A stretch of 57,222 nucleotides of DNA, filler included, from Dirinaria sp. TL-2023a (Eukaryota): assembly GCA_051941275.1 (NCBI GenBank). It is 6 parts of 6 records of this genome, joined end to end, with 100 filler letters (N's around TTAATTAATTAA, not from the genome) between each part and the next. Parts side by side here need not be neighbours in the genome. Positions count along the whole stretch, not along the records: positions 38,236 to 47,686 come from JAVEBF010001054.1; 5 more parts are not named here. One strand, 5' to 3'. The translations under genes were made by a program, and so were the position numbers. Of this stretch, positions 3,701-53,625 are shown piece by piece. Numbering within the stretch: the stretch's first letter is position 1; each line of letters opens with the position of its first letter. The notes beneath the pieces were generated by a model that did no database searches, was not told the origin of the DNA, and was given only the letters and a program-made list of their open reading frames with translations.

Positions 3701-6700
3701 ACTCAGCTGCATCTGGAAGATCTTGGCTTGCGCCACGGAAGTAATCGATCGTAGGGATTGAGGTGGCGGAGCTTTGACTCCTGGACTCGCAGAAACGTTC
3801 TATGTACTCACTGTTAATGCGGTCGAGGATCACTTTAGCGGGCTCGTTGACATGCGCCAGGGTCAAATTCCTGGCGGCGACAGGGCCTTGCAAGATACAT
3901 GTTCGTTGGACATCTTGATCAACGACGGCATCTAGATCCTCGGATTGCCATAAAGAGTCTTTCTTGAACCAAGTCTCGAATTGTTCGTCTATTACGGGAA
4001 TAAAGGTTACTGGCTTCTGGCCGCGCCGTCGGCATAAGGTTAGAAAAAATTGCGCATCTTCGGCGGAAATAAGTTGGGTGTCTGCGTCGGGATAGGCGTC
4101 CAAGAAACTGTCTATCATCGAAATAGGGTCCAAGAAATCATCTGAGCTTTGGAAAATCGGTATTTGATGTTGCGCAGTGGTAGAAGATAGCCTTTCTTCG
4201 ACTCGATGGACATAGTCTTTGACCAGTATACAGTGGGATTCGTGAACCCACCGAGACTGATGTTTGACGTAGAGAAGTTCCACCAGTCTCCGCAATACCT
4301 CAGAATACGTCATATCTTCCAAATCTACAGCTTCGCCCTCGAAGTTGCGACCAAACCAGACTTTCTGTGAGTCCTTGTTGAGCTTCTGAATATAGTAGTC
4401 CTTCCGTCTATTCAGTTCTGCGACTTGCTTGGCTTTGGGCAGAGAAAAGATGGTCTTGTCAAGTTCAGCCCACAGCAAAACACCACGAGTGGCAATTTTG
4501 TGTATCGGCTGGCCTAATTCGGAGTTGACCGTGACAATGCCTCCAGCAGCACGTTTGTATGTCTCTTGCCATTTCCCATCTTCCAGACCCGGGGCGTTAG
4601 CAATCGCGATCTTAGCAGCCTCAGATGTATGGGCTTCTTTGGCCACCATCATGCGGCTACCAAACAAGCATCCGTCAAAGGGCATGTCTGGGCGACCAAA
4701 CTTTCCGGACCAGGTACCGCTGATATACGGATAAGCTTCCGCCTCGCCAAAGCCGCTACCAGCGACAAGAACGATGTTAGAGCACTTTCGTATTTTGCCG
4801 TACGTTTGTAAGATGGGCTCATGGAAGTCCTCGAAGGAATGATGACCACCCCCTCGTCCTCCTGTCCATTGCAACATGATAGGAAAGCTGGGATTCGCCT
4901 TTGCAATTTTTATAACATCTTGGATTGTGTCCACCATACCTGGTTTAAAAGAGATGTGCTTCAGACCAAGATTTCGGATGTAGTCGGTAGCTACATCAAG
5001 AGACGGTACACCAGCGCCTAGAGTGATACCATCGATCGCAAGTCCTTCTGACTTCAATTGGCGTATGAGAGGGATTTGCCATTGCATCGCTCGCGGATTA
5101 GAGTAAATGAGGTTAATAGTGATTCCTCTCCCCACTGGAACTGCCTCTTGAAGCTGCTTGAGAGCTTTAGTGAGCGCGTCAGGGTCGTTGTATCCGCCGG
5201 CTGCTATTTCCACGTGGTAGCCAGCATTCATAATGGCTGCAACGAAATCGTAGTGAACTGTGGTGGGAGTCATGCCAGCCACCATTAGTGGCGGGACACC
5301 AAGCAGCCTACTCATTTTCGTAGCCAACATTTCTCTACCAGATGTGTCCTTGAGTAGGCTAGGAGCATGGTCTCTCGACCAGTCTGCACCGTACTTTAGG
5401 GCACGCGATGGCTCAAATAACTGTGCTTTGTAGCCAACCAAAGAATTAGTACCGTTGAGCGTGCCCCCCAAAATCACATGGACCCCAGTTCCCTCTTTAC
5501 TTCGTTGCAATAACGTTCCAACTCCAGAAGTCCCGCCGGGCCCGAAATCAACTATGTGGGTAGCGCCAGGAAATGTAGTTGCCCGTGGCCAGTCGACCAT
5601 CTTCGTCATCACAGATCGACCTAACTCTGGCAAGAGATCCCCAATTTCCGCATCTTGAAGGTCTTGGCCTGTGTTGGTATGATAGACCGGTATCTTGAGG
5701 TTGCTCGACTTGAGGGAGATTTTGTGCCTCTTTAGATCATCCTCGACGAGTGGTTCTGCGGTTTCGAGGTAAGAGCTGTGAAATGGGACAGTAATAGGTA
5801 AGAAGCGAGAAGAGAACTCGAGCTTTCTTTCCCCGAAAGGAATTCGACTCTGATCGGCTCCTTCGGCGACCTTAAGACGGCGAATTTGATTATTGAAGCT
5901 GACTAAAGACAGCGGAGGACCTCCCACAACGATATTCCGGGCACCGTTAATTAGGACGATCATAATCTGTTTTTCATGAGAGAGATACTTGTTCAACTCA
6001 TTCACTTGATCTTGAACTTGGGATCGGCTAAGATTCATAACATTCAGCATTGGCGACGGGACACCCTCGCCTGCACTGATGGAGTCTTGGACGATCTGCT
6101 GTGAGAGTACAGTCTCTGGATATATCTGTTGACTGCGATAGCCGATATAGAAGAGCGTAGTCAGAGCTGATTCGACTGCTCGATCGAAGCCTTCCCATGT
6201 TGAAGCAGTAGCAATAGCAGCCGCAACAACGGTGCCTTGACTATGTCCAGTCAAGCCTGTGAACCGGCTTAATAGCTCTCCCGGCGATTTGCGAAGGACT
6301 TTGCATGTCACGCAGTAATGTACGAGCTGAACGAGACCAATCAATGGAAAACTGACGGGTGCGGAAAGTAGATAGCTCGTAGGCGGTGTGGACTCTGGCT
6401 GGCGTAACCAACGCATAAAATCCAAGGCTTTAGGATACTGCTGTGCTCTTGTCGTATCTGCTTTTGCAAGGGAGGATAGTATTGTCGATGCTCTTTCGAG
6501 CATGTCTTCGAGGAATGAGGGATACGTAGCATAGGCGTCGCGAAGCTCCTCGAAGTAGTGCTCCGTGTTTCCCTGACCGCCGAACACCATGTAAAGACAT
6601 CTCCGATTCTCGTCATTCGAACCTCTGAGCAAGGCAGGCTCGCGATATTTGGGAGGTCTCTGAGTTAGGAGGATGGCATTATAATATGAACGAATGATTA

Positions 6701-7091
6701 ATTGCTTGACCGTATCCTCACAAGCCAGCTCGGAGGCAAAAGTATGAATATCTTCCCCCTTCAGATAAGTTATTTCGAGTACCTCTAGAAGAAGCCGGCT
6801 GAGCTCCGCACGGCCATCAAGAGGCGCCGAAGCTCGCGCGTCAGCTCCTTCGACGACGTATGCGAGGAAACGAGCAAAGAGCTCCGGCTCCGAGGACGGT
6901 GAGGGTTGCGTCGGAGAGGAGTGGGCGGAGAGGAAGTTGAAAAAGCCATCTCGTGCACGTTTAGTAGGTGAGCGCAGCAAGTCCGGTACAGCAAAAGAAG
7001 TCTCAATGTCCCGATAAACCAAAGAGAAAGGTGACAAGGCCACCAATGGCGACCGCTCCGACCAACCTGTAAAGCTGTGTCTGTTATGCAT
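745..7091 (-). CDS. FAS1: Fungal type I fatty acid synthase beta subunit (AT-ER-DH-MPT), divergent, probably a secondary-metabolism paralog; 3 exons (7091-1883, 1825-1340, 1277-745), ~2075 aa
   Basis: Motifs: AT GHSQG, ER QWTGGRGGGHHS, MaoC/DH DFNPIH..TITHGM, MPT FTGQGSQ and FAGHSLGEY, C-terminal GIDVPFHS. GT-AG introns at 1882-1826 and 1339-1278 join the three ORFs in frame (6228 nt). Confidence 0.95.
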
Positions 7092-7895
7092 TATGCCTGA
7101 TTGGCAATTGAAAAGAAGAGAAAAGAATGTCTTGAACCTCGGCACGAGACAGGTTCAAGTCACAGAAGAAAGTCAAGGAGGATGCCAGGAATCATTGCCA
7201 GGAGATGTTTGGTAGGAGGTGTAGTTCATCTTCTGATAGATCATGTACCCCATACCGTAGTTATTTGATTGCTAATTACAGCAGCTGAGTATGATCGCTC
7301 AAACTACTGCACTGCACAGCACCAGCAATACCGCTGTTCTAGACCTATTTGCTGGATTTCTCTAAATTTTGCGAAGGAGCTGGCTGAGCTTTGTTGGCGG
7401 TACCTTAGAATGAGCTGACTGCGGCCGCCAAGACCAGGGGACTGTGCCAATCCCTGTACAGGACTACAGGTATCAAAACGCTGATTGGGACTACCAAAGG
7501 TAAGGTAAGGTAAGCGAGCTAAGCTACCTACCTGAGGCTATCTGATTAGCGTCTCAGATATTAATGGCATCGGTTTCATATCGTAGTCCTACCTATGTAT
7601 GGCTCCCTTGCGAGCCTCAAATCTGCAACACCTGCAGAGTCACCGCCTGTCCCTACGGGGTACCTGGCATACCCATGCCAAAGGGACCCTGGCACCATGT
7701 CGAGGATGCCCCGAACGCTACGGTGTAACACATGCTGAGCACCACCATGGACTCAGCTATGCCTATTCACGTACTGAGGGCAAAGATAAACGCTAGATGA
7801 TTAAAATCTGCCACCATGCCCTCTCATCAAGCGAAGCTAAAGGCACGACCTTCTCACTCTCAGCCATTGGATCAAGACCGTGAAACTTCTTCACA

Positions 7896-9467: not shown

Positions 9468-9567
9468 NNNNNNNNNNNNNNNNNNNNNNNNNNNNNNNNN
9501 NNNNNNNNNNNTTAATTAATTAANNNNNNNNNNNNNNNNNNNNNNNNNNNNNNNNNNNNNNNNNNNN
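9468..9567. other. Artificial contig linker (44 N + TTAATTAATTAA + 44 N)
   Basis: Same 100-bp spacer recurs five times; TTAATTAATTAA gives stops in all six frames. Confidence 0.98.
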
Positions 9568-19024: not shown

Positions 19025-19124
19025 NNNNNNNNNNNNNNNNNNNNNNNNNNNNNNNNNNNNNNNNNNNNTTAATTAATTAANNNNNNNNNNNNNNNNNNNN
19101 NNNNNNNNNNNNNNNNNNNNNNNN
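19025..19124. other. Artificial contig linker
   Basis: 44 N + TTAATTAATTAA + 44 N. Confidence 0.98.
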
Positions 19125-28581: not shown

Positions 28582-28681
28582 NNNNNNNNNNNNNNNNNNN
28601 NNNNNNNNNNNNNNNNNNNNNNNNNTTAATTAATTAANNNNNNNNNNNNNNNNNNNNNNNNNNNNNNNNNNNNNNNNNNNN
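28582..28681. other. Artificial contig linker
   Basis: 44 N + TTAATTAATTAA + 44 N. Confidence 0.98.
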
Positions 28682-38135: not shown

Positions 38136-38235
38136 NNNNNNNNNNNNNNNNNNNNNNNNNNNNNNNNNNNNNNNNNNNNTTAATTAATTAANNNNNNNNN
38201 NNNNNNNNNNNNNNNNNNNNNNNNNNNNNNNNNNN
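38136..38235. other. Artificial contig linker
   Basis: 44 N + TTAATTAATTAA + 44 N. Confidence 0.98.
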
Positions 38236-38798
38236 ACATGGTCATGTAAAGGCGTAAGGATAGCGAGTTGATTATGATTGAACAGGTTATGTCAGGGGCG
38301 ATGGAAGGGTTGGTGGGTGGTAGGATATGTGGAAGTGTCTATCAGCCGGTGTTTAGTTTATAATGAGGGAATGATATATCGTTGAAAAAAATATCTGAAG
38401 TAAGAAGCGGTCAGCTTGATTGTTGGACGGAGAGCACAGGACGACTGGGCTGGCGATTAATGTTTCAGTGGCCTGCAATTAAGTTAGATGCGGATTTGAA
38501 ACGGAGGGAACAAGGATTGTACTCACCATCAAGAGCCCTTGGTGTGGCATTTGTGGGCCTTAAAATCAAATCATTATCATCGCCTCCATAGTCTGTAGTG
38601 ATATAGTTGCTTGATGACATACTCGTAGAGCCAAAAAAGCTGTAAGACATTACGAATGAGGGCCATTACAGCCTCGAATCACGGTGGCGCGTGAGCATCC
38701 CGAGATTGACCTAGAAGCACGCGCCTGAGAATCAAAGACACGTATCGTAGGCCAAACATACAAGGCAATGGATGGGCAATTCAAAAGTTCCAAATAAC

Positions 38799-39006
38799 AA
38801 AAAGATTCATCAGGTCCTCGAGAGCAACCCTTCAACTCTCGATTTCCGTGACTATAGAAACCCTCCTCTGGCCACCACAGCCGTCGGAAGTTTGCTGTGG
38901 AAATGTAGGACATCGGCGCGGTTCGAACACTCCACCTCTCAGCACTCCATCCTTTTATAGGAGTCTGTTGTGGTCTTGACCCTTAAACTATCGAGGATTT
39001 GTTAGT
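38799..39006 (-). ncRNA. Putative Pol III-transcribed structured ncRNA with a tRNA-like head, copy 1 (family unidentified)
   Basis: Clearly homologous to 52099-52310. On the minus strand: A-box-like TAGTTTAAGGG (38990-38980), B-box-like GTTCGAACC (38928-38920), 5' TCCTCGA complementary to 3' TCGAGGA, T5 run at 38803-38799. Confidence 0.6.
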
Positions 39007-40610
39007 GGGAAACAAGGTTTATTTACCCCTATAGAAAATGATCAGGGATGCAGGACATGGCAATAATGCTCTGCTAATCATTTACCACGACAAATCGTTA
39101 CATAATCTTATGGTTTATTATTTCTTTTGCCTTTCGACTTTTCGTATGAGAAAATGGACTTTGACAAAGTCTGAGAAGGTGGGTAACGGCTCAGGCTTCT
39201 CTAAGAAGATATGTGACCCACTCTTACGCTCTTGACAATACCTCAAATTCTTTGCCTTCACTCTACACATACGCTTCGATTTCTTTGCTTTTACTCATAC
39301 TACCAGTGCATGTTTCAAAGGCTGCACGTCATTACTCTCAATCATCTTCGTGCCCATGATCGTATGATGGTTTCTATGAGACGAGCGTTTCTTCCCAAGC
39401 CAACACCACATTTGAGCAGGAAAGAGGCTCAAAGAGCTTTGACGTGGAGTCGGTCTGTCCTGAGTGATTGGCATCCGCAGATCTATATCTTTAGCTTTGG
39501 GGAAAGATGTGTCTTGTTGGCGAATTATGCTGATTAAGAGCTGTATTAGAAGACGACTGACAAGCGCTGTATCGTATCGTCTTTCTCTGAATGCATGGCA
39601 CATTTCATATATACCTCGAGTGCTACTTGAAGCAGGCATTACAGGTGTTACCATGTGATAGATATCATGCAAAACTCAAGTATCTTGGAAGCTAAGAACA
39701 AATTCCAGGCATTATTAACGCCGTGCCGATGCCCGGCCGTACTGTGCATGTCAGATCGTTTTGCATATCGTTTCAGTTATTCCGTTATGGAAACATGTTT
39801 GCGTGTCTCGGTGATACGAGCTGGAGAAATATGGAAAGAAGAGGAAGATTACAGACGATAAACTGCACAGATTGTGAGCGATAAGTTTGAAGGTTGAAAT
39901 TAAACTCCCAATATTAACTAATCTCCAAAGCTTACTGGCGTATTCATGTTCTTCAACTGGTCAACTTTCTAGAATATGGCTGATGCGAATTTTGAATCTC
40001 TCACTGGCAATGATTCCACTTCCTTCTTCGGCATCTACTTGAGTCGTCAGTGCATGGATTGGGTGTTTATTGTACATGAACGCAGCTCAAACCCCTTCCA
40101 TCGATTATAGCTTCCTTCAAGTTGTTCTGTGTAGGCGAGCGATACCTGCGGACAGCATCGTGGCATATAAGTGGTCGTCTAACAACGCTGGGTGATATCG
40201 AGGGCCCGTTTGCGTGACTATTATACTAGATTGCGAGAGGGCCAAGATGTATGACCTGTCGATATTCAAGCTTCATCCGTTCACACTTTTTTTTCAGTAT
40301 CTTGCTAGGTGTGCCGGACTCCTGTTATACTGTCCTTGATTGTCTGGCATCTTTTTCATTCAACCTGCTGAAGCCGTGATCTCTCATCAACTTTTTTCAG
40401 TCGCATCTCGGCATAACTTCGGGCTCGGCTCCTTCGATGACTAAGCATACTAGCGTGTCATTGCGTGACGTCAGATTTTGCAGACACTTGGCCATCAGCC
40501 AAATGCACAAGTAAACAGAGGATTCACTTCTCCTCATCAGCCTGTTGTCCTTCAGGCATGCAGGCCTGATTGGGCCAGTCGAATGAAACTGTTCTAATGA
40601 GTATCGAGAT

Positions 40611-43600
40611 CTAAGAGAATACAACGCCCTCATGTTTTCTGCTCTCGAATTGCTCATGGGATCTGGCTGCCGCCAACGCCTGCCAACGTCTGATGAGTCG
40701 GCCATCCATCGCTGCAGCTTCCTTTTCTTCGACATGTCGTTTGATAAGCTCTATGTCAAATCCACTTTGCCTGATCCTCGCCTGACGCACCGGATCTCGC
40801 ATCTTGACAGTGTGGCTATCTTGCTTCACAGACCCATTGACACCTTGTCCGCCGAATACCGATACCAGTATTCCATTTAAAAATCCAAGTATGAGACTTA
40901 TCAAGCTGGTCACATTACACAGCGTGTGAACCCAATCTAGCGGCGTGGAAGCTGCCTGCCATCGTTTGGCCCAATCTATACGAGGTTGCAAGTCCAAATC
41001 CTCCCAACTCAAGATTTCGCACGACGCCAGGCACGCAGCGGCAGCACCTGAGAGCGGCAATCCGGACTCCGTGTGTTGCCAGTGTGCTGTTAGCGCTGGA
41101 ATCACGGAGCAAGATGCATTCATCTCCGGCGGCGCCAGCTCTCGCTCAATCACGTCTGCCGCCACGTCGGCTCCGTTCCCCTCCGCCTGGACTCGCATGG
41201 CTATCTTTGCGCAGCGCTCACGATACCTATTCGAAAGAAGGTCCCGTAGACTGGCTGCTAGCTCTTGCGCAATGAGGGTGCGGACTTCCAGAGGCGGTGG
41301 ACCTAGCCCCAGTTCATAGACCTTGGCGGCCCAAAAATACTGGTCGAGCAGGAACGGTACGAGCAGCATCGGTACGCCCGCTGTCAGGCCTGCAGCGGTG
41401 TGTCCTGCGCCACCATGGTGAACGAAGCCGTCCACATGAGGAAGGAGCCAACTGTGTGGAATGGAGTCGGCGAGATAAAGGTGGGGAGGAATAGCGATGC
41501 CCTTCTCGAGTTTTGCAGACCAGCTTCTACACACGACAGCCGTTGCTTCGTTTCTTGCAACAGCGGACGATAGAGTGGAGAGGAGTTTGAGAGGGTCAGT
41601 GATAGTCATTGAGCCGAAGCTAATGGCGAGGACGGGCTTGTCTGTTTCCAGGAACGCCTTCAGTGAGTCAGGCGGCGTGTATTGCGTCTCTTGGTCTAGG
41701 GACGTGTAGCCTCCGATTGCGACGTTCTGACCCCATTCCGATGGTCTGGGAAGGATATGGGAGGACCATAAACATACAGTGGGTAATCTGGCCTGTAGAA
41801 AGTCTCTCGTGGCCCAGGCCCAAGAAAGGGAACGCATTCCATACTCTCTAACACGGAGGTGGTTGAGAAACGACCCAAGGGCCAGCCAATTCCTACCACA
41901 GTTAGCTTCGGATCCCACAAGAGCTGCGTCCGTCAACGGAGACAGGCCGGGGTACTGACAAAAGATCCAAGCAAAAGTACAATGTGTAGTTCCACCATCG
42001 ACCCGGAGAGAACGTTGGCTTCGTCATGGTCAACACTGGAGGGAAATCTCTCGTTGGAAGAGCTGGCTGCGCCGAGATAAGCACGAGAGGAATTTGGAGC
42101 TTCTCAGCTGTATGAACATGTACTGTGGTAGCCGCGCTCGAAACGACTACGTCGGCTAAAAAGGGGCGTTTGTCTAAAATGGGATCCTTCTTGTCGCTGA
42201 CTTGCATCCGGTGTGTCGCAGCGCCAGGGTTGTCTATGCCAGCCTGCCAAAATCTCCGGAATGTAAGGCACAACGACCGTCGCAGCGTAGTAAGGTCGCC
42301 ATTGAGGATTGACAGCCAAACATTGGGCTCCCGGCCGAGGATACGAGCAAAATCGTCCGGGCTGCCACCCACATCGTAGAACTCGAACCCATATTTTTCC
42401 ACCAGGGCCTGATGGGTAGGATGCGTGGCAACGCGCACACGGCACCCTTGCAGTCTTTCAGCGATGCTAAGGAAGACTTGGATATCTCCGCGGCTGCCGA
42501 GCACCATGAGAAGAACACTTGGGCGGCACAACTCTGATACGATGTGAGGTGCAAGCTGTAGACCCTGCTCAGCTGTCTGCGTTTCTTGGTGGCGTGAGCA
42601 ATCGAGGTATCGGGCCAACGCCTGGATAGGGAAAAGATGGTGATAGAACGGGTATCCAAGATACAAGACGTTGGGAAAGCCCGTCCCTACGTACATTTCA
42701 AACGACCAGGTGGCGCCTTCGCGCTTTCTGTAGTGCTCTGTCTCGCCGCTCTGGTTTGAGACCAGCCATCGCATGCCGTTCTCAATAGCTGGGTCAGACG
42801 ATGGACGGAACCGTAGCAAGGAATCGACAGCCCACGCTGTCTGCGCAGCCGTGCTTATACCTATCCCAGCCAGACTAGGATCCACATAAGATTGCAGCGT
42901 CTCGCCCCAGCCTCCGTCCTTATTCTGGCAGTTTTCCAGCCAACGCACGCCGCGCATGGCCGCTCTATGTGCATCGGCATCGCTTTGGAAGAACCAAGAA
43001 AGACCACGAAGGACATTGGTGGAGCCATAATTGTAATTGTTTCCCCAGCGGCCCCACCATTCGCCCGTGGCTTTTTGTTCTTTCATCAAGAATTCGAGTC
43101 CCTTTTTCCATGATACCTGCAGGCGATCCCTGAGCGGGCGGTTCAGACGCCCACCCTTCCGCCGCGCGAGCAACAGCCCGAAGCATTCTAACAGCCGCCC
43201 TGTGACATCCGCGGTACTTGGGTCCACGAGGCTATCCATATCACTGAAAGGAATCTTGTGCAGCCAGCGTGCGTCATTATTGATGTCGAAGGCTCCCCAA
43301 CCACCGTCGCGGTTCTGCATGCCCAGCAGCCATTCGAGGGCATTTGAGATGCATTCAGAATTGATACACCCAGGATCCTGCTTTACTAAAGTCATCACAA
43401 CGACTGCTGTGTCGTCTGTATCCGGATACCACGTGTTGTGATACTCGAAGCTCCAACCACCCGCCTGCGAGGTGTTGGCATAGAGGCGCCAGTCGCCATG
43501 AGGAACCATCAGTTGTGCTGCGCGAAGCCACTCCGTTGCTCGGATCACGCGCTTATCCTCTCGCAAGCCTGCGTCGCATAGTCCGTTCACCATCAGTGTC

Positions 43601-44616
43601 GTGTCCCAAACAGGTGAAACTGTTGATTGCAGCCATTTTCCACGCGGGTCGTTGATGGCCAGGCGTTCTATCGCTTCTAGTCCAAGGCGTACCGCCTTAT
43701 GGTGTAGTGGAAAGCCTTCCAATATCAATGCCCACACGCTGCCATGCATGGGCGGGAAGAAGCCTGCCCAATCGCCCGCCTCCTCTTGGTGCTCTAAGAG
43801 CCACTCAATGCACCGTTTCAGAGAAAGGTCTCGCATCGGTCCCCTTTTGAGGCCTCCAAGCTGGATTAAGACCTTATCCCCCAGCGTAAACCCGAACTTG
43901 ATTATATCCCGATCACGTCCCCAGAACAGATCCCACAGCGGCGGCGCATACGGCACATGTTTCCGTGTGGGGTCGCACCACAGCTCGTCCAGGAAATCGT
44001 TGTCTTCACTACGGCCGTTCGGCAATGCGTACACGGGTTCGTGGTGGCGCACCACCAGTATTGGAATCAGCGTGCTGCGTGACCATGATGAAAGCACATA
44101 GATATTAAGAGGGGCCCAGTCTGGCAGCAGGATCAACTCCGCTGGCATCTGAGGGATAGCAGCCCAGGGAACCAGCCCGAATGTAGCGAGAAAGAAGCGC
44201 GTGAAGAAGCGTACTTTAGCGATGCCGCCGCTGCGGAGCACAAACGCGCACGCCCGTCTCATAGCCTCGTGCGACGCCGGTACACCAAGGATTTTGAGAG
44301 CAAGGTACGACTCGACGGTGGTGGATAGGTTGCCCCCGAGTCGAGGTGCCAGGCCCCATGATCCATCCGCGTTTTGGTCGTTGAGGAGCCATCGCTGCAG
44401 AGCAGGCCCATCGTCAGCTAAGGAGAGTCCCGGTATGGCATACTTGAACATAATATACTGCGCCGTGAAGGTTGCATCGGCAGAGACTGGGGCAACCCAA
44501 TGACCGTCTGGTTGCTGGCAGCTCATCGAAAACTCGATAGCTCGCTGCAGCGACTTGCGGACACCTTCCCTGAGTTGTCCCTCGCCTTGCGGTTTTTCCA
44601 TGTTGGAGGACTGCAT
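40611..44616 (-). CDS. efuA: Squalene-hopene-type triterpene cyclase fused to a GT1/sterol-glucosyltransferase-like domain (EfuA/FsoA-like triterpene glycoside synthase); exons 44616-41960 and 41892-40611, ~1312 aa
   Basis: Cyclase: QW repeats (CQQPDGHW, DQNADGSWG, MQNRDGGWGAF, CQNKDGGWGE), SPVWDT, catalytic WYPDTDDTA, GTGFP..YLGYPFYHHLFP. GT: GSRGDIQVF, RVRVATH, ISFGSM, HSWLLPHVDGFVHHGGAGHTAAGL..VPFLLDQYFWA. A 67-bp GT-AG intron with GCTAAC branch point joins the two ORFs in frame (3939 nt). Confidence 0.93.
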
Positions 44617-45628
44617 TGTCTGTGACCTCTACACATTTGAGAGCATCAAGACTTAACATGAGTAGCAAGGCACTGATGGACAGTTCCTTTCCATTTTCTT
44701 GCCTTATACCATGCCCCTGAGTAGCCCGATTGGGCTTGATACGCAGAGCTCCATTGAGCTCGCCTCTAATTTCTCACCTCTTCTTTCGAGACTCTGATCC
44801 ACGCAGTCCCCTACTAAACACTGAGCCATCCGCAGCTTTACCATTGGAGTAAGCACCCAAGACCATGTTACACCGTCTTCTTTGGTCGACAGGCATAATC
44901 TGCCCAACGTTGGCGCTATTAGTCATCTACACGATGATGCTGTACACCCTAAATTTTCTCACGTTACATCAGGATTCCGCCTATGGTGTAGTTTACGATT
45001 CTACCACTATTCTGCATCTGTTTTGGTTTTAGTCTACGAGAAGGCCTAACAATCCTGAAGGATTCCGTTGGTTGCCTTGGCATCGCATAATCGAGCTGAC
45101 GTGAGAACCAGGGCTGATTGAAGATCGCCAGACCTGAGTCGCGACATATTTTTTCCTCTGAGCGGACGATGATATCTAGAAGTGTCGAAAATGTGCTAGG
45201 TCGTTCTACTGACCCTTGCGCAAGCACGAGCCAGTCAAAGGTCTGTCTCGCCAAGACCTTTTTCTGCGGGTGAATATTAGATGCATGCCTTGAGCTGCGA
45301 TATCTCGATCACCGACTCTTCGGACATTGCCTTTTGCAGCCTTGCTTTACCTTCTGCAGACTTGCCGAAAGTTGAGACTAAGTCTCGTTCTCGTTTACGT
45401 TTACGTGTAATAAACAGATAGCTATCAGTTTACGAAATTAATCAACGATACTGCGTGATCGTAATTCTCGCAAGCCCACCCCCGGGTTCTGTCCAGTCTG
45501 GCACACATCTCCATAGTACAAATTACGTTGAGCTTTGCGCTGATAATAGACCAGATGCGCATAGCGTGTCTGAGAGGCTTTCAACTACTCTTGTACTCCA
45601 AGGATATATTCCAAAAGTCGGTTCCAGT

Positions 45629-47452
45629 ATGGAGATCTTGACACTCATCTCTGGATCGCTCCTACTTCTGGTCTTCTATCGCTTCACCTCTACGCTCAAA
45701 TTACTGAGGAACCAAGTTACCTTTCCTGAGACTATTCCCATAGTGGGCGTCCAGAAACAATTCCTTAGCATAGCCAGAGCATCATTGCGGCAGCTAACCA
45801 ATGGCATCACGACTTTGCTGGATGGATATAGTCAGGTAATGACATCCGCAGCAACAACGTCAAAAAGCGACATACTCACTGGTACAGTACGCCCAACATG
45901 GCCGACCTTTCATTGTCTACGATCCCAGCGCGCAGCAAGAGCTCCTCCTGCCTGGAGAGCACATCAAGTGGTTCTCGGACCAGCCCGACTCCAAATTGTC
46001 CAGCTACGGTGTGCGGCAGGAGCGTCACGCAGTACGTTATCTGCATATGGGCATCGAGCTCTCCACGACGATGCACTTCCTGGAACGCATCATAGGTGAA
46101 CGTCTCACTCGCCATCTGGATTCCGTGAATCACGACATGCATGACGAGCTCCGGCTTTGTATCGACGCAGTATTTGGCACAAATGACCAGGAGTGGAAGG
46201 AGGTCAATGTCTACGATAGTTTGCAGGACATCGTCATGCCCACCATGAGCCGCGTTTTTCTTGGGCTTCCGCTTTGCCGCGATCCGCGCGTGTCCACGGC
46301 GCTCCGCCGGTACATCTTAGCGCTGGGATTTGGAACCATCATTGTTGGGGAGCTGCCACGGATGCTGAAGGCGATCGTTGCGCGTCTCGTCAAAGTGCCA
46401 TTAAGGTACTACCGAAACAAGACGTTGGGCGTTCTTAAGCCCGTGGTAGAACGTCAATTAGCTCAGGGAGCAGCAAATGGGGCCAACGACCAAGTGGAGG
46501 GGTCAAATTTCATCCGACAATGTGCGAAACTTTCCGAAAAGAACACTGTGGGCGGTATCGGTAATATGGCCAAGCCGGAAGTAATTGCTGAGTGGATCAT
46601 GTCATTGGTATGGAACAAAGTTTCCTGCATCTCAGTCGAGTGCTAGTTGAAAAGAGTGGACTGATTGATAGCGCAATAGGCTTTTGCTGGCTCCTCTTCC
46701 ACAGTGATACAGGCGACTCATTTGCTTCTCGACATCGCCAATTCGCCAAAAGAATTGCAAGTCTCTCAACAGCTTCGGCAAGAGGCAGAAGAGACTCTTC
46801 GAACCGACGAGGACTGGGCCAAGGGCATATCGTTCAAAAAGCAGGTTCTCTCCGACAGCGTGATCCGAGAGTGCCTGCGGTTTCATCCTATCCTGATCAA
46901 GGGTCTTACAAAGGAGGTGGTACCGTCTTCAGGCCTAAACCTCCCTGATGGCACCAACATGCCGAAAGGAGGCTGGGTCGGTATTCCTGTACTCGGGATA
47001 CACAGGGATGAAAGATTTTACGCCGATCCATATGTCTATCAGCCGTTCCGCTATGTCAAAGAGCGCTCCACGGACGAGAAGCAGAAAGCCGCTGCCTGGG
47101 AGGATGAGCTCGAGGCTTCGAAGCCTACGACCACATACCTCGGATACGGTTATGGACGGCATGCATGGTACGTAAAAACCGATATCCTCAACCCTTCCCC
47201 CCCTCTTTTCTCTTTTCATTGGCTTTTTTTTTTTTTTTCTTTCGCTCAGGATTTTGACTTTTGGGCAGCCCCGGACGGTGGTTCGCGACCCTGATGCTGA
47301 AGATGATTTCCGCGTATATCGCCATCAACTACGACATCGAGGCGACCGCCCCGCCGCCAAGCATGAAGGTCATCGGCGATGCGGCGCTGCCTCCAATGTC
47401 AGCCACGATCAAGGTTCGGAGGAGGAGGAGAAAAGAAGCCGCTAAAGTCTAA
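45629..47452 (+). CDS. Cytochrome P450 monooxygenase, 4 exons, divergent from the cyclase-GT gene; probable triterpene tailoring enzyme
   Basis: N-terminal TM anchor, SRVFLGLPLCRD, ExxR (RECLR), PYVYQPFRY, heme motif YGYGRHA-C-PGRWFA completed across intron 47168-47268. Confidence 0.93.
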
Positions 47453-47686: not shown

Positions 47687-47786
47687 NNNNNNNNNNNNNN
47701 NNNNNNNNNNNNNNNNNNNNNNNNNNNNNNTTAATTAATTAANNNNNNNNNNNNNNNNNNNNNNNNNNNNNNNNNNNNNNNNNNNN
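47687..47786. other. Artificial contig linker
   Basis: 44 N + TTAATTAATTAA + 44 N. Confidence 0.98.
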
Positions 47787-49035
47787 GAAGACTTAAGGTA
47801 TTTGAGAAGACTTTCATTCTAAATACAGCATACTCGAATTTGCCCCAAGGATAAGTATAGCAGCTGGTATTTGGTATACTCTGCTGATTAATCCATATAT
47901 GACGTGGATCCGCGGCTGTCGCTTCCTCTCACCTTTGGGACTCGAGATACATTAAGGTACTGTACAGTATGCCTGCAACCTAAGTACGCAATCCTGACCT
48001 AATGTTACACAAGCATTCTTCCAAACCATAAGGTTGCAAGGTATTGCTGCCCAAATAACAGGCCGACGAAGAGTCTCGATCAAGGGTTGCCCATGTCGAT
48101 GGGGCGTAAGTGCGAGGCGCCAGTGGCGGATCTTGAACCAGATTGTGTTCGGGGGGGGGCATCAGAAAGTCAGTTGACGACGTGTCACTACGAATGATCG
48201 CTTCTCGGAGAGCCTAGAGCGGACGGAGAAAACGGCGATTGGCCTTCCCAGATTTTCTTGAGTGCATTATTGAATTGACGATCCATGCTGGCGCTGAAAC
48301 AAATCCTTCATCCCCACGTCATTGCTCAAACCTGCCATGTCCGTATGAATTGAGCAACGTTTCTGCCCGATCCGCACTGAGACAGCTTGAGATTCTGAGA
48401 GAGCCATATCTCTGCACAATAATAGCATGCTGTGCATGATCGATATCTCCCAAGTCATCGGGTGTACTGTATGTGGGTTGATTACTGTTATCTTACCTTA
48501 GGTGCTGCTACTACCTACTGTTGCCGGACAGCCATTACCTTATTATTGCTGGCTTTTTAGTAAGGTATTATTCCGTGTGTTTCGCTTGGCTGGCGTCAGC
48601 AGCAACGGTCCAGCGGCCAAGGGGCCAAGCAGAACTACAAGCAGCCAAGCAGTCAAGCAGCCAAGGTGCCCTCTCGTAAGCCTGCCTCCCTCCCTGCTCG
48701 CCCTGCGGTCGAGGGGGTGCAGCAGCTGCAGCAGCATTTTTTATTTAGCGGGGTGGGTTTTTACTTACACGTAGGACCAACCTGGAACCTCCATCTCCTG
48801 CGCCAGATAATCACACACTTTTCAGCTGTCTCAGGCAGGCAACACATGTAACAAGCCGTGAATACCTTATCCCTTGGCAACGTCGCCTTGTTATATCCTA
48901 CATCCACCCCTCCATTTTCTTCCCCGTTGCCATTGTTGGCGTGCTCAGGGCAGCCTCGTTAAAAAGATCCAGTTGAAGTGCACAACAACTTGCTCATCTT
49001 ACGATCCCTTGCTCAGTGCTGAAAATTTTTCTACA

Positions 49036-51414
49036 ATGGACCCAAGATTCGCCAGGCCCCCTTCGCCAGGCACTCGGCGCATCGCTGCGCAGCCTACGCG
49101 GTCGTCAACTGGTACCCTAGTGTATCCTTCATCTTACGATCCCTACTACGGCCCTGCTCGATCTACCGGAAACGTTGCAGCTGGTCCCCGTATCAGCGCT
49201 GACCGTGTAGCTGCCCCTCGAGTAGTCACAAAATACCGGCCCGACAGCCCACCCATCCGGAAGTCCTCGCGGGACGACTATGTGGTCCCTGTTCGGCCTC
49301 GAAGAATGACGCTGGAACCAGAAGCGGCTCAACCCCGACGACCTCTGAGCATGATAGGGCCCACCTCACCATCTCGTAACAGGCCTATCATCACCAGCTC
49401 CATCGATAGGCCCAGCAGCCCGTCGACCAAGTCCGGTCGCGCGCGTCAAGATGACGGGTATTACCTGCAGCCAGCGTCTTCGTTGTCTCGACGTGAACAC
49501 CGTCGCGGCTATACTATTGGTTCTACGAAAGATTCAGACCGACTCGTGGCTGGCGACAGAGAAACCAGAGACAGAGTAGACCGTGGCGGGTACAGAAGCT
49601 CAGGTATAGGGGGCGGTCGTGGCGGGTACTATCTGGACCAACCTTTGGTTCGGCAACCCCAGGGTGGGGATGACCGCGCATTTGGCTACGAGTACAATGA
49701 TCGCAGAGAGCAGATGTACAGAGACGTGGGGCCCAGATCGAGGAGAGATAGCTACAGTGTTGCAAGGCCGGAGCGGCCCTCTAGCATAACAGGGGTTGAA
49801 GACCTCCAGCGAGTACCGGTTTCGGGGAGAGAGCCAGGGCCACCAGTCTCGATGAGAGGTTTCGACAATCTCGGTCGAGCGAGCAGTCTGAGGCAGGACC
49901 GGCGTCCCAGGGAGGAATACATACCGCGAGAGCAAACCCGTGACGACTTCAGCGAATCGAGTCGAAAGCCTGCTCGTGCCCAGGTTGCCTTGCACCAACT
50001 CGCTGATGACCGTCACGGACCATACTCCTCGGAAAAGGATTATGAAGTTCGGCAGCCGAAGCTTCCCAAACCGGTTGTTGAGCCCAAACTGGTAGTGGAA
50101 CCAAAACCCGTGGTCGATGAGAGAGAACGAATCGATGCAAAATCAAGGGATCCTTATGACGATCAATATAGTAGAGGCGGTGACGACCGCTCTAGAAGAC
50201 ATCATGAAAGGACTCACAGAGATCGCGATCCCATCGACGACCGTGACCGAAGAAGAAATGATGACCGGGAGCGCCGGCGAGAGGAGCGTCATCGGGATGA
50301 TCGTCACCGAGATATTGAACCAATTGAAGATAGAGATCGTAGGAAAGAGGAGCGAACTAAAGATCTGGATTCTCTCGATAACCGGAACCGCAGAAGAGAG
50401 GATGGGCACCGACAAGCTGAGCCCTATTATGAGCGAGAGCGTAGAAGAGAGAATCGGCATAGGGACCTTGAGCCTGTCGATGACCGCGATCGCAGGAAAG
50501 ACGAGCGTCAGAGAGAGAAACGTGACCATGGCGATGACAGCCGCCGCGGAGATGCGGCGATGCTCGGTGCTGCTGGTCTTGCTGCTACTGGTCTTGCTGC
50601 AGAAGGCGTACGACAGCACAGGGCACACAGAGATGACGCCGACCGCCTTGCAGTCCCACCGGATCCTTCTGAGAGTACCAGCGTCAGCGCCAGCGTGGAA
50701 GGTAGTGATGAAGAACGGCGTGAGCGCCATCGGAGGCGTCGCCGAGAACGAGAAGAAAGACGGGAAAGAGAAGAACGGGAGGAGAAAGAGCTGCGAGAAG
50801 CAGAAGATCGGAAGCGACGTGAGCATGACGAGCTGCCGCCGCGAGAGTTGGCGCCTCCTCGAGATCAAGAAAGCAGTCTTCGAGAGTCCATATCGTACGA
50901 GAGACATCCTCATGACCGGGAGATCCCGGCCGCGGAGTCTTCTCGCGGCTCAAGCCGTCGTCACCACTATGCTCGCACTCAGGACAAGGATTCCTACTCC
51001 GAGTCTTCACGTAGCGACTCTGAATTCGAAGATCGTCCGCGCCAAGTGCGTGTTGTGACACCCACAAACGAGCCCAGCGAGCCCAAGGAGCCGCCCAAGT
51101 CGATCTTGCGCCCGCCTCGCGAAAGATTTCCAGAAGACCCGGCGCCTGTGCGTGAAGGTGTCGCACCCCTCAAGGACGCAGGCAAAAAGGGCATCCCGCC
51201 CAACGCGCGCTGGACCAAGATCGATCGCAAACTGGTCAATCCGGAGGCGCTGGAGCAAGGCAATGAGAGATTCGAAGAAAGACCCGATTATGTAATCGTG
51301 CTGAGGGTATTGACCAAGGAGGAGATCGAACAGTATGCCTTGAAAACGTCGGAGATTCGAGACAAGAGAGGCTTGAGGCCGCCGGAAGAGAGAGGCGAAG
51401 GGGAGAGCTCGTAG
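49036..51414 (+). CDS. Conserved fungal hypothetical protein: long R/D/E-rich disordered region plus a conserved-looking C-terminal domain
   Basis: Single-exon 792-aa frame from ATG 49036; C-terminal FPEDPAPVREGVAPLKDA..GIPPNARWTKIDRKLVNPEAL..ERFEERPDYVIVLRVLTKEEIEQYA. Confidence 0.8.
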   Translation: MDPRFARPPSPGTRRIAAQPTRSSTGTLVYPSSYDPYYGPARSTGNVAAGPRISADRVAAPRVVTKYRPDSPPIRKSSRDDYVVPVRPRRMTLEPEAAQPRRPLSMIGPTSPSRNRPIITSSIDRPSSPSTKSGRARQDDGYYLQPASSLSRREHRRGYTIGSTKDSDRLVAGDRETRDRVDRGGYRSSGIGGGRGGYYLDQPLVRQPQGGDDRAFGYEYNDRREQMYRDVGPRSRRDSYSVARPERPSSITGVEDLQRVPVSGREPGPPVSMRGFDNLGRASSLRQDRRPREEYIPREQTRDDFSESSRKPARAQVALHQLADDRHGPYSSEKDYEVRQPKLPKPVVEPKLVVEPKPVVDERERIDAKSRDPYDDQYSRGGDDRSRRHHERTHRDRDPIDDRDRRRNDDRERRREERHRDDRHRDIEPIEDRDRRKEERTKDLDSLDNRNRRREDGHRQAEPYYERERRRENRHRDLEPVDDRDRRKDERQREKRDHGDDSRRGDAAMLGAAGLAATGLAAEGVRQHRAHRDDADRLAVPPDPSESTSVSASVEGSDEERRERHRRRRREREERREREEREEKELREAEDRKRREHDELPPRELAPPRDQESSLRESISYERHPHDREIPAAESSRGSSRRHHYARTQDKDSYSESSRSDSEFEDRPRQVRVVTPTNEPSEPKEPPKSILRPPRERFPEDPAPVREGVAPLKDAGKKGIPPNARWTKIDRKLVNPEALEQGNERFEERPDYVIVLRVLTKEEIEQYALKTSEIRDKRGLRPPEERGEGESS

Positions 51415-52098
51415 GTCAAAATGAGGCTCGTCATAACGCGGTTTGGGTCTAAGGGCGTGGAAGGGAAAGGTATACAATGCCCTATCATCCGACATGATAC
51501 GGGGATTGCCTAATAAATGTGTTGTATGTATGTACAGATGAGTTACGAAGAACGAAGGCACGGAGGTAGATAGAATGCCACTGTTTGCAACTTTTCGATC
51601 TGGTTCACTGATCTACTTGCTCCATTGCGCTTTGGATGAATTGCATCCAAAAATTTGCCTCTCATACGACGGATGTCTGTAGGGTTCCTTAGAGTAACAA
51701 AAATAAATATGCAGCAAACATCTCAGAGCACTGATGAGACGAAAAAAGGGATGAATGTATCCTTCAGTTAAGGGATGGAAGAGAAAAACGGCTTGAGGGA
51801 CAGGGAGCATATCAGTACTGTACTGAAACCGGAAAGACAAATTGAATGAGCAGGTGCAAAAGCGAGGTCTAGGCAGACGCAGAAAACCAGACACGATACG
51901 TATGTAAGATACATATGTGGACAGAGCCCATCAAATATGATGGCGCGTATAGGAGCGAGCGAGCGAGCGGGCGAGCGCCTTGACTACCAAAATCGAAACA
52001 TACAGACCTACACTAGCATCAAATGGAGCACATAAGGCAGCAGGACGCTACCATATACATACAAGTGATAAGACTCCAAAAAAGATAAAAAAAATAGC

Positions 52099-52310
52099 AA
52101 AAGATTCACCAGGCTCCCTCGAGAGCAACCCTTCAACTCTCGAGGTTTTGCTGGCTATAGAAACCCTCTGTTCTGGCCACCACAGCCTTTCAGAAGTTTG
52201 CTGTGTAGGTAGGTCTCGGTTGGGTTCGAACGCTCCACCTCTCAGCACTTCATTCCTTTTACAGGAATCTGTTGTAGTCTTGACCCTTGCGCTATCGAGG
52301 ATTTGTTAGT
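52099..52310 (-). ncRNA. Putative Pol III-transcribed structured ncRNA with a tRNA-like head, copy 2 (family unidentified)
   Basis: Homologous to 38799-39006. A-box-like TAGCGCAAGGG, B-box-like GTTCGAACC (52231-52223), terminal TCCTCGA/TCGAGGG pairing, T4 then T8 runs downstream, CTATATAA upstream (52342-52335). Confidence 0.6.
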
Positions 52311-53625
52311 GCTTCAGGAGGGGGTTATTTAGCGTTATATAGATGATAATCGGAATTGCGAGATTGGGGGATGATGCCCTTGGAAACCGTTTTTGACATG
52401 ATCAAGAGGTTATTTGCTGTTTAGTTTGTTTTGCTTTTTTTCTTCTTCTTCTTTCCTACTGGTGGTATAAGAAAAGAGGCTCGAGTGCAGCCTGAGTATG
52501 CAAATTGCAAAAGGAGATCTTTTACCCACTCTCACTCTTTGACCAAACGTTGAGATTTTCTTCTGCCACTTTTCCTTTGCACACTGTTCCATCTTCTGCT
52601 TTCAGTCAGATGCTAAATAGGTGCTTCAAAGGCTCTACAGCTTTTTCTTCAATCTGTCCCCGCGCTCATGTTCAATTTCTCTAAGCATCAAAATTTGCTG
52701 GGACTACGCTTCGACAAGAGGCTCGTTTCCAAAATTCACCACAAGCATCGGTAGCAATCGATAGTATCCACATAAAAAATAAAATCTATCCCAATACTCC
52801 CGTACTTGGTTGAGATTTATATAGCCAAAGACCAGACTGCTCAGCACCCGGTGGGCGTCGTCAGTTCGCCAAGCCCTCTAGCTGGGTGTATGTGGGCTTA
52901 GGTAAGCTTTCGCAGCTCAGGAGTTTCCGATTGCCAGAACAGCTCCACCAAGCACCATCTGCTGGGGAATCGGTTGCATTTGATGGAACTCGGAAACATA
53001 TTTCCCACGTTAATCTCAGGGACTAAGGTATGATTCTGCGGGAAGAGAACGAGGGGAGTTGTTTCCGAGTCAGTACCTTAGTCTCCTAGTGAAATCCGAG
53101 GGCTCTTGCTTCCGGGGGAGGAGGCCGAGAGAGAGAGTAAGGTAGCCTGGTAGGTAGTGTAGCCGCCGACCCTCAAGCAAGCTGCAGCGAATCAGGATGA
53201 AGAAAGGGGTTCTAGACGAAGGAATCCTCCCGGTTAGGCATCCCTTCGAGCCCTCGTCACAGCAATCTACGCACGCTCACTGGCTCTCAGCATCCCTCTA
53301 CTGCAGCTGTAAGCACTACAACCGCTGGGCCTTGTCGCTCTTCTGCAGCGTCCCCGTCACACAGCGATGTCTCACGCCCTCTTGACGCCTCCCCAGGCCA
53401 GCTATGGCTGTCGAGTTGCAGCACTGGCGCGGTTAACCTCGTCCATGAGTCGAGAGCGTCAGTCAAAACGTCTTGCCTGCCCAGACAGACAGCTATTCTT
53501 ACCTTCTCCTTGATCTCTCGTTGTCGCCCAGTTTCATCGCGAACGAACCTCATTATTAGAAACTTATCGACCTCTCTGCCTCCGACAATAATATCGTTGA
53601 TTGTTGCACCGCCAGTCTGACCACC

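Follow-up and report, generated by a model that had tools for sequence, protein, structure and literature searches.

Two copies of a candidate RNA polymerase III-type, tRNA-derived element in Dirinaria sp. TL-2023a, with dispersed relatives in public sequencing runs

The DNA described here is a stretch of 57,222 nucleotides (nt) from Dirinaria sp. TL-2023a (assembly GCA_051941275.1), referred to throughout as the window. It is composed of six pieces of 9467, 9457, 9457, 9454, 9451 and 9436 nt, and the falling piece length suggests that these are neighbours in a length-sorted, fragmented assembly; the window is not one locus. Two intergenic segments, one in piece 5 (copy 1) and one in piece 6 (copy 2), carry diverged versions of a single element, which is read here, from its sequence, as belonging to an undescribed tRNA-derived family of RNA polymerase III (Pol III) type. 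By a narrow margin only, small RNA genes are favoured over a short interspersed element (SINE). An earlier interpretation of this DNA (the sequence-only reading) had called the copies unlinked, correctly, because pieces 5 and 6 are separate assembly pieces.

The conserved unit and its minus-strand anatomy

The features on which the argument turns are the following, with the artificial spacers of the window given last.

38792-39033, minus strand: copy 1, whole conserved unit (promoter, ~200-nt RNA and T-rich trailer, all predicted), bounded by the limits of blastn and nhmmer homology
52092-52339, minus strand: copy 2, whole conserved unit, from MAFFT and blastn
39030-39034 and 39019-39025, minus strand: copy 1 upstream motifs CTATA and TAAATAA, putative -30 TATA elements
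52336-52341 and 52325-52331, minus strand: copy 2 upstream motifs TATATA and TAAATAA
38998-39007, minus strand: CACTAAC-AAA, between TAAATAA and the head of copy 1
38908-38998, minus strand: degenerate tRNA-like head of copy 1, an ARAGORN cloverleaf at the 80% threshold only
52208-52303, minus strand: degenerate tRNA-like head of copy 2, from ARAGORN at the 70% threshold
38991-38997 (copy 1) and 52295-52301 (copy 2), minus strand: acceptor-like UCCUCGA
38980-38990 (copy 1, TAGTTTAAGGG) and 52284-52294 (copy 2, TAGCGCAAGGG), minus strand: A-box-like motif
38920-38928 (copy 1) and 52223-52231 (copy 2), minus strand: B-box-like motif GTTCGAACC
38850-38882, minus strand: central hairpin of copy 1, GGCUGUGG-U-GGCC...GGUU-U-CUAUAGUC, with five G-U pairs
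38818-38842 (copy 1) and, identical, 52119-52143 (copy 2), minus strand: 3' hairpin UCGAGAG-UUGAAGGGUUG-CUCUCGA
38843-38849 (ACGGAAA) with 38797-38803 (UUUUUGU), minus strand: A-rich/U-rich helix around the 3' hairpin in copy 1, predicted by RNAalifold
52146-52152 (AGCAAAA) with 52096-52102 (UUUUGCU), minus strand: the same helix in copy 2, predicted by RNAalifold
38799-38803 (copy 1, T5) and 52099-52102 followed by 52087-52094 (copy 2, T4 then T8), minus strand: T-runs, candidate Pol III stops
9468-9567, 19025-19124, 28582-28681, 38136-38235 and 47687-47786: artificial spacers, N44-TTAATTAATTAA-N44, which make the window a chain of small contigs

The copies are homologous over the entire unit. 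Positions 39033-38792 and 52339-52092 are 80.95% identical over 252 nt (blastn, E ~1e-53), a MAFFT alignment of copy 1 with copy 2 has a mean column identity of 85% over 315 columns including flanks, and every identical block on which the sequence-only reading had drawn is found in both. A third copy was not found in the 57 kb by sensitive blastn or by an nhmmer profile, all other matches having E > 0.2. The conserved unit is longer than had been proposed, by ~35 nt upstream and by some T-rich sequence downstream. Beyond it, the downstream flanks align with a score at chance (121/300 shuffles), and the upstream flanks have just a low-complexity A/G-rich match at differing offsets (4/300 shuffles). 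No target-site duplications were seen, in that no word of 7 letters or more is common to the two flanks (114 nt upstream, 131 nt downstream) in either copy, and such duplications could have decayed in old copies; common 6-mers between the flanks are at the chance level (483/500 and 415/500 shuffles). The element is non-coding, as had been claimed, because five of the six body indels between the copies (1, 3, 1, 2, 2 and 2 nt) break the frame, the open frames crossing it shift from one copy to the other, and the stop-to-stop frames over it belong to no Pfam family (best E 0.088 and 0.39, neither reaching the cut-off).

On the minus strand, the features named in the sequence-only reading (TATA/TAAATAA, UCCUCGA, A box, B box and T-runs) are all present. 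The start of TAAATAA lies 28 nt from the head in copy 1 and 30 nt in copy 2, which by sequence is where the TATA box of a Pol III or Pol II gene classically lies. At thresholds of 70-80%, ARAGORN draws a decayed cloverleaf over the first 91-96 nt of both copies and puts GTTCGAAC in its T loop; the B-box-like motif would therefore be the T loop of a tRNA-derived head. The bare B-box motif turns up in the window 16 times where 13.2 matches would be expected, and so is no rarer than chance; being palindromic, it would fit the plus strand equally well. The distance from A box to B box is 62-63 nt in both copies, not the ~50 nt given before, and slightly above the 30-60 nt of the type-2 Pol III consensus. 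The head may resemble tRNA-Asp, as had been proposed. After the head comes a body of ~110 nt that is unrelated to tRNA and has the conserved hairpins within it. In copy 1, GAAUC stands just ahead of T5, and the order and spacing of the motifs are equal in copy 2. Judged by motif positions, the anatomy of both copies is that of a type-2 Pol III-like gene with an upstream TATA (A box, B box, TATA near -30, oligo-T), which bears out the architecture suggested earlier.

Searches against known families gave little. Rfam yielded no match at gathering thresholds anywhere in the 57-kb window, and four scans of smaller regions, with E allowed up to 10, yielded nothing relevant, in agreement with the earlier statement that signatures of families such as U2, U6 or 5S could not be found. 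A match to TeloSII_ncR49 lies outside the element (E 0.46) and was set aside, as were three structure-less or unrelated Rfam models (E 1.1-7.8). The Rfam tRNA model has no match in a scan of 104 nt that admitted E values up to 10, and ARAGORN reports no tRNA at default thresholds in the whole window and none in the copies with introns allowed. The element is not a canonical tRNA gene. The tRNA-derived head claimed for it holds as far as the degenerate cloverleaf at relaxed thresholds, and draws nothing from the default search or the Rfam tRNA model. By eye, the copies have in common no box C/D, box H/ACA, Sm site or Helitron-type end; the CUGAUGA that copy 1 has close to its 3' end is CUGGUGA in copy 2. 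The remnant of a Fanzor/TnpB-type guide RNA was considered, with nothing found in its favour. No account of an element of this kind, whether from lichen-forming ascomycetes or from others, turned up in the literature searched, and the family is undescribed relative to Rfam 15 and that literature, not relative to repeat libraries such as Repbase or Dfam. The WEIRD RNA of Magnaporthe, a 1.1-kb RNA (PMC2104539), is unrelated in kind.

Relatives, strand, fold and genomic setting

Relatives come from two public sequencing runs with small shares, from two studies: X1, labelled as a lichen metagenome, and X2, labelled 'organism A'. The search that gave these two listed no RNA run, a blank to which no weight is given. 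Their contigs were aligned to 38600-39200 at 80% likeness, and the loose ends were compared by hand. There are 13 matching contig records in X1 and 43 in X2, all of them inside 38789-39033; the lack of cover over the remainder of the aligned stretch is given no weight either. Many continue into unlike sequence (a share of 0.49 in X1 and 0.24 in X2), and X2 contigs of 1.7, 5.3, 6.6, 7.5 and 18 kb end within the element, as happens at repeats in assemblies. At 38848, 12 X2 contigs carry a letter other than that of the window (ten T, two C), and three contigs skip 123, 93 or 38 nt internally. Going by these sequences, the X2 family has at least a dozen sequence-distinct members, some of them deleted; summed contig depth was not taken as copy number. 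The element had been called multicopy on the strength of two copies, and with the relatives in X1 and X2 counted there are far more than two.

The loose ends extend the anatomy on both sides. Among those listed on the 3' side, five of six have GAAUC or GGUUC and then T-runs (T5 then T5; T4 then T5 and T10; T5; T20), the sixth being the contig read as a copy 1 ortholog. The copy 2 trailer (GCUAU, T-run, AUC, T-run, GG) is common to the consensus of five X2 contigs. Upstream, a further X1 contig leaves copy 1 at 39007, passes through a different spacer and then has TTTATTTA and TATATAG, and one X2 contig matches to 39015 and then has the same two upstream motifs. Because the motifs recur in copies 1 and 2 and in X1 and X2 contigs, the upstream 35 nt belongs, on sequence grounds, to the common unit of the paralogs; its two TATA-type motifs keep a fixed spacing, and the spacers vary. 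One locus can be compared with its flanks. An X1 contig over 38983-39033 has two letter differences and one gap in 51, and its next 30 letters agree with 39034-39063 at 22/30; in a contig that matches from 38789 onwards, the final 10 letters of the loose end are those of 38778-38787, beyond which likeness is half to two thirds. These X1 contigs appear to be the copy 1 ortholog in a related fungus, with element plus promoter ~92-94% alike versus 65-73% for the flank, so that conservation beyond the flanks can be read directly from the letters at this locus.

Conserved-block scans elsewhere gave no matches in a metagenome contig collection (two scans) or in a viral contig collection (one scan). 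A collection of prokaryote-genome contigs gave none in one block scan and one 20-mer match in another, in a Prevotella metagenome-assembled genome; it was rejected, with only 21 nt alike, the rest unrelated and, by rough estimate, ~1 such match expected by chance.

The variants among the relatives bear on the strand. Those of the X1 and X2 contigs were mapped onto the RNAalifold structure of the window copies, and of the 40 single-letter variants listed, 20 fall on paired and 20 on unpaired columns; by site, there are 16 variant sites in 87 paired columns versus 14 in 55 unpaired ones. Transitions at paired sites keep a standard pair in 10 of 11 cases on the minus strand and in 3 of 11 on the plus strand, each variant being counted once regardless of contig number and without the partner letter of the same contig being given. 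The pair-keeping kinds are C-to-U opposite G, A-to-G opposite U, and G-U turned Watson-Crick. For instance, G replaces A at 38851 in nine contigs, whereby a G-U of the central hairpin becomes G-C, and the variants at 38841 and 38837 retain the pairing of the 3' hairpin via G-U. Because of this asymmetry, the variants support the minus strand as the RNA strand, with helices that would matter to it, in keeping with the preference stated earlier from one-sided changes through G-U alone. Selective constraint, also claimed earlier, finds some evidence in these transitions and in the comparison of the ortholog with its flank.

The predicted fold departs from the one first proposed. RNAalifold on the two copies gives 61 pairs, of which eight change on one side (all via G-U), two change on both sides and none is broken. 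Both double changes fall in the A-rich/U-rich helix, where one further pair changes on one side and again none is broken, and this suggests, from two sequences only, an A/U helix clamping the invariant 3' hairpin. The first T-run, previously taken as a plain terminator, is in both copies the 3' strand of this modelled helix with its two compensatory pairs; if the helix is real, the RNA would therefore extend to a later T-run. A 7-bp stem closing the 5' and 3' ends (with UCGAGGA) had also been put forward. It can be drawn, but competes with the 3' hairpin and loses to it (pair probability at most 0.018 versus 0.86-1.0), and the energy penalty for forcing it is 3.2 kcal/mol for copy 1 and 10.2 kcal/mol for copy 2.

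As to the setting, the large reading frames of the window are those of fungal proteins, including a fatty acid synthase (FAS) beta subunit, a fungal-specific transcription factor, a squalene-hopene cyclase/glycosyltransferase fusion and a cytochrome P450, which places the source among the filamentous ascomycetes. The fusion lies on the minus strand, with the squalene-hopene-cyclase domain at 41902-44616 joined to a GT28/EryCIII-like glycosyltransferase at 40611-41936, and a P450 fragment adjoins it at 46704-47294; 40611-47294 looks like a triterpenoid-glycoside gene cluster. At 1851-7145 (minus strand), an FAS beta-type protein of 1764 amino acids matches the SAT (starter unit:ACP transacylase) model, whose name refers to aflatoxin biosynthesis, and it may be a FAS of secondary metabolism. 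An open frame of 850 amino acids at 48862-51414 (plus strand), rich in R/D/E repeats (RDR/RRE runs) and without a Pfam match, ends ~700 nt from copy 2. Runs of 24 and 33 A lie at 148-171 and 703-735, close to the start of piece 1. There is no long interspersed element (LINE) within the 57-kb window.

Maintained genes or a mobile repeat

The reading that we tentatively prefer, at somewhat less than an even chance, is that the copies are promoter-bearing small RNA genes of SINE-like build that are maintained alongside decayed relatives. The family would have been born from a tRNA and would now be a dispersed set of Pol III-type small RNA genes. Each full copy would be its own transcription unit, with TATA/TAAATAA ~30 nt ahead of a decayed, ~90-nt head of tRNA type in which the A-box-like and B-box-like motifs lie, then a body of ~110 nt and oligo-T. 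Transcription by Pol III is predicted to give a ~200-nt minus-strand RNA with its end in the T-runs, the body of which may fold into the G-U-rich central hairpin and the invariant 3' hairpin clamped by the A-rich/U-rich helix. Selection on RNA and promoter, presupposing some function in the host, would keep the promoter-bearing copies, both window copies included, much as in the BC1 or 4.5S situation, and the remaining copies in related genomes would be decayed or deleted relatives. The likeness of both copies in anatomy and spacing, and the T-runs following GAAUC, speak for such genes. The upstream motifs are moreover kept while the spacers between them drift, which looks like the behaviour of a selected promoter; a retroposed Pol III transcript would not carry these motifs. 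On the same side count the apparent ortholog that is better kept than its flanks, the pair-keeping transitions, the 61 pairs of which none is broken, and the lack of target-site duplications, of a third window copy, of a coding signal and of a known family. A further proposal is that lichen-associated ascomycetes have a Pol III small RNA of a hitherto unknown class, maintained by the host: a tRNA-born, structured RNA of ~200 nt, encoded by dispersed genes each with a -30 TATA, kept at orthologous loci across species and having a function of its own as ribonucleoprotein scaffold or regulator. This is rather unlikely; if true, the class would have a status comparable to that of the animal BC1, 4.5S, Y or vault RNAs.

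Several observations weigh against maintained genes. A tRNA head, an unrelated body and a T-rich tail are exactly the build of a tRNA-derived SINE, and the many variants, the contigs ending in the element and the internal deletions are like those of a repeat family with dead members. One X2 contig pair is without TATA motifs upstream, and the window paralogs diverge by 15-19%, with six indels. The argument from the ortholog consists of ~60 flank letters of metagenome contigs and could be mimicked by gene conversion. On the side of structure, the folding energy of single sequences is unremarkable (the minus strand has z-scores of +0.17 in copy 1 and -2.45 in copy 2, the plus strand 0.00 and -1.34), covariation counts from two sequences are powerless, being equalled in 137/500 shuffles, and with an unchanged partner each of the nine transversions on paired columns would disrupt its pair. 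If the A/U helix is real, the RNA does not end at the first T-run.

An ordinary, selfish tRNA-derived SINE, of which the window copies would be two old insertions or source copies without host function, is a serious possibility, though on balance we would not bet on it. Pol III would transcribe it from the internal A and B boxes, and the reverse transcriptase of a LINE would recognise the invariant 3' hairpin and the T-rich tail and spread copies through the genome. Head, body and tail match this build, down to a cloverleaf that appears at relaxed ARAGORN thresholds only, and the T-rich tail varies in length (T5; T4+T8; T5+T5; T20). The many distinct copies with internal deletions in X1 and X2, the long contigs ending in the element and the two copies on separate window pieces are what dispersed, decayed copies would look like; among the X2 loose ends listed, nine contigs lie on the 3' side versus three on the 5' side, which would fit 5' truncation. 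Even the pair-keeping substitutions could stem from selection on the source genes that define subfamilies. There are precedents as well: fungal tRNA-related SINEs of 140-493 bp exist (PMC5063351), and the 3' end of Mg-SINE imitates that of its LINE (PMC2104539). What fits badly is that neither window copy has target-site duplications, and that homology between paralogs covers ~35 nt upstream, two TATA-type motifs included, a segment out of reach of an RNA copy whose start is close to the head. Element and promoter are also better kept than the flank at the apparent orthologous locus, and an A-rich or short-repeat tail like the ACT repeats of AfuSINE2-1a (PMC5063351) is lacking. The sequence-only reading had named an ordinary SINE as one result that would overturn it. 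That case is half excluded, by the missing target-site duplications and the upstream promoter common to paralogs, and half stands, with many variant copies carrying deletions.

It is improbable that the element is a repeat at the level of DNA, such as a non-autonomous DNA transposon, a fragment of a larger element or a regulatory module, with incidental RNA-like features. A repeated unit that reaches upstream of any plausible Pol III start and lacks target-site duplications would suit this, as would A/T-rich end words (TAAATAA left, TTATTT or CTATTT right) that are roughly inverted by eye. However, the inverted match comes to ~6 A/T pairs, nothing above chance in A/T-rich DNA, and a repeat search found no inverted pair at the element ends such as the terminal repeats of a miniature inverted-repeat transposable element. 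The strand-asymmetric behaviour of G-U (10/11 versus 3/11) points instead to selection on a minus-strand RNA, and neither copy is adjoined by a transposase or other element. Still less credible, with a very small probability, is a diverged member of a known family (signal recognition particle (SRP), RNase P/MRP, small nuclear, small nucleolar or intron-containing tRNA) or an intron-flanked non-coding exon. The start, ACTAAC-N13-TAG, resembles a branch point and 3' splice site, and the 9-mer CTTGTATGT, containing the fungal 5' splice-site word GTATGT, recurs 33-34 nt past the unit in both copies (38756-38764 and ~52056-52064, minus strand), probably by chance. GTATGT is absent from the loose end of the X1 ortholog and the downstream alignment score is at chance (121/300), and the exon was rejected. 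As for SRP RNA, GGUGGC and CUAUAGUC may be reminiscent of words in its Alu domain, and AGGCUGUAAUGGCCC at 38660-38674, which like copy 1 is on the minus strand and lies 125 nt downstream of it, is identical to positions 1-15 of the Fungi_SRP model, in the first hairpin of that RNA. That 15-nt match has E = 7 with nothing SRP-like after it, and is put down to chance. The Rfam and intron-allowing ARAGORN results given above also count against a known family, and a single-copy housekeeping RNA would not show at least a dozen variants per genome. Anything beyond the readings named here is hardly to be expected.

Small RNA genes that are maintained stay the slightly favoured account, to be understood as a reading of sequence; the earlier observation is confirmed and its interpretation is partly supported. 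To our knowledge, few Pol III transcripts of filamentous fungi have been described beyond tRNA, 5S, U6, SRP and RNase P/MRP RNAs, and the non-coding RNAs and SINEs of lichen-forming lineages are, as far as we know, essentially uncatalogued. Maintained genes would be a new fungal small-RNA family with unusual dynamics, its dispersed paralogs each bearing a promoter. A SINE would be atypical in lacking target-site duplications, in having its upstream promoter shared and in ending in a T-rich tail. It would then be relevant to the survival of Pol III retroelements in fungi where a TATA upstream is required by Pol III promoters. On either reading, the family breaks short-read assemblies of such genomes and merits an entry in repeat and RNA libraries.

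Comparison with known systems

Among fungal elements, AfuSINE2 of Aspergillus fumigatus and Mg-SINE of Magnaporthe have, as here, a tRNA-unrelated body, and ahead of it a decayed head of tRNA type that carries A and B boxes (PMC5063351); the degenerate head of the present element would correspond to it. The same source gives fungal tRNA-related SINEs as 140-493 bp long, dispersed and of low-to-moderate copy number, again as here; Mg-SINE is cited there at ~100 copies, the screen of A. fumigatus also sought an oligo-T tract behind the body, and the target-site duplications are of 4-14 bp (PMC5063351). At least some fungal SINEs share their 3' end with a Tad1-type LINE (PMC5063351 and PMC2104539). 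The present element is unlike these SINEs, compared by description only, in that it has no target-site duplications and includes a TATA-bearing ~35 nt upstream in the repeated unit.

For an upstream TATA, rodent genes offer a parallel. The 4.5SH, 4.5SI and BC1 RNAs come from type-2 Pol III genes that need a TATA-like box at -31/-24 in order to be transcribed, and such boxes matter for SINE copies too (PMC7279448). The type-2, SINE-like or tRNA-derived build is common to those genes and the element described here, which differs in belonging to another kingdom, in having no sequence relation to them, and in its dispersed copies that are 15-19% diverged. The 4.5SH genes lie in tandem units and BC1 is single copy; BC1 is of SINE-like build and yet a maintained gene.

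A tRNA-like 5' part with A and B boxes drives an unrelated downstream RNA in yeast RPR1 and SNR52 and in plant tRNA-snoRNA (small nucleolar RNA) dicistrons, all of which are single copy. Unlike in these, the body of the present element has no conserved RNase P, box C/D or H/ACA signature. The 5S genes of Neurospora and other filamentous ascomycetes form a dispersed Pol III family with a conserved TATA near -29 and otherwise unrelated flanks, evolving by birth and death and leaving pseudogenes. Their internal promoter is of 5S type, whereas that of the present element would be of tRNA type; its paralogs are far more diverged and have no Rfam 5S match. Pol III genes of Neurospora (5S) and of fission yeast need an upstream TATA, and a dispersed Pol III family that keeps a TATA with each working gene, as is proposed here, therefore has a precedent.

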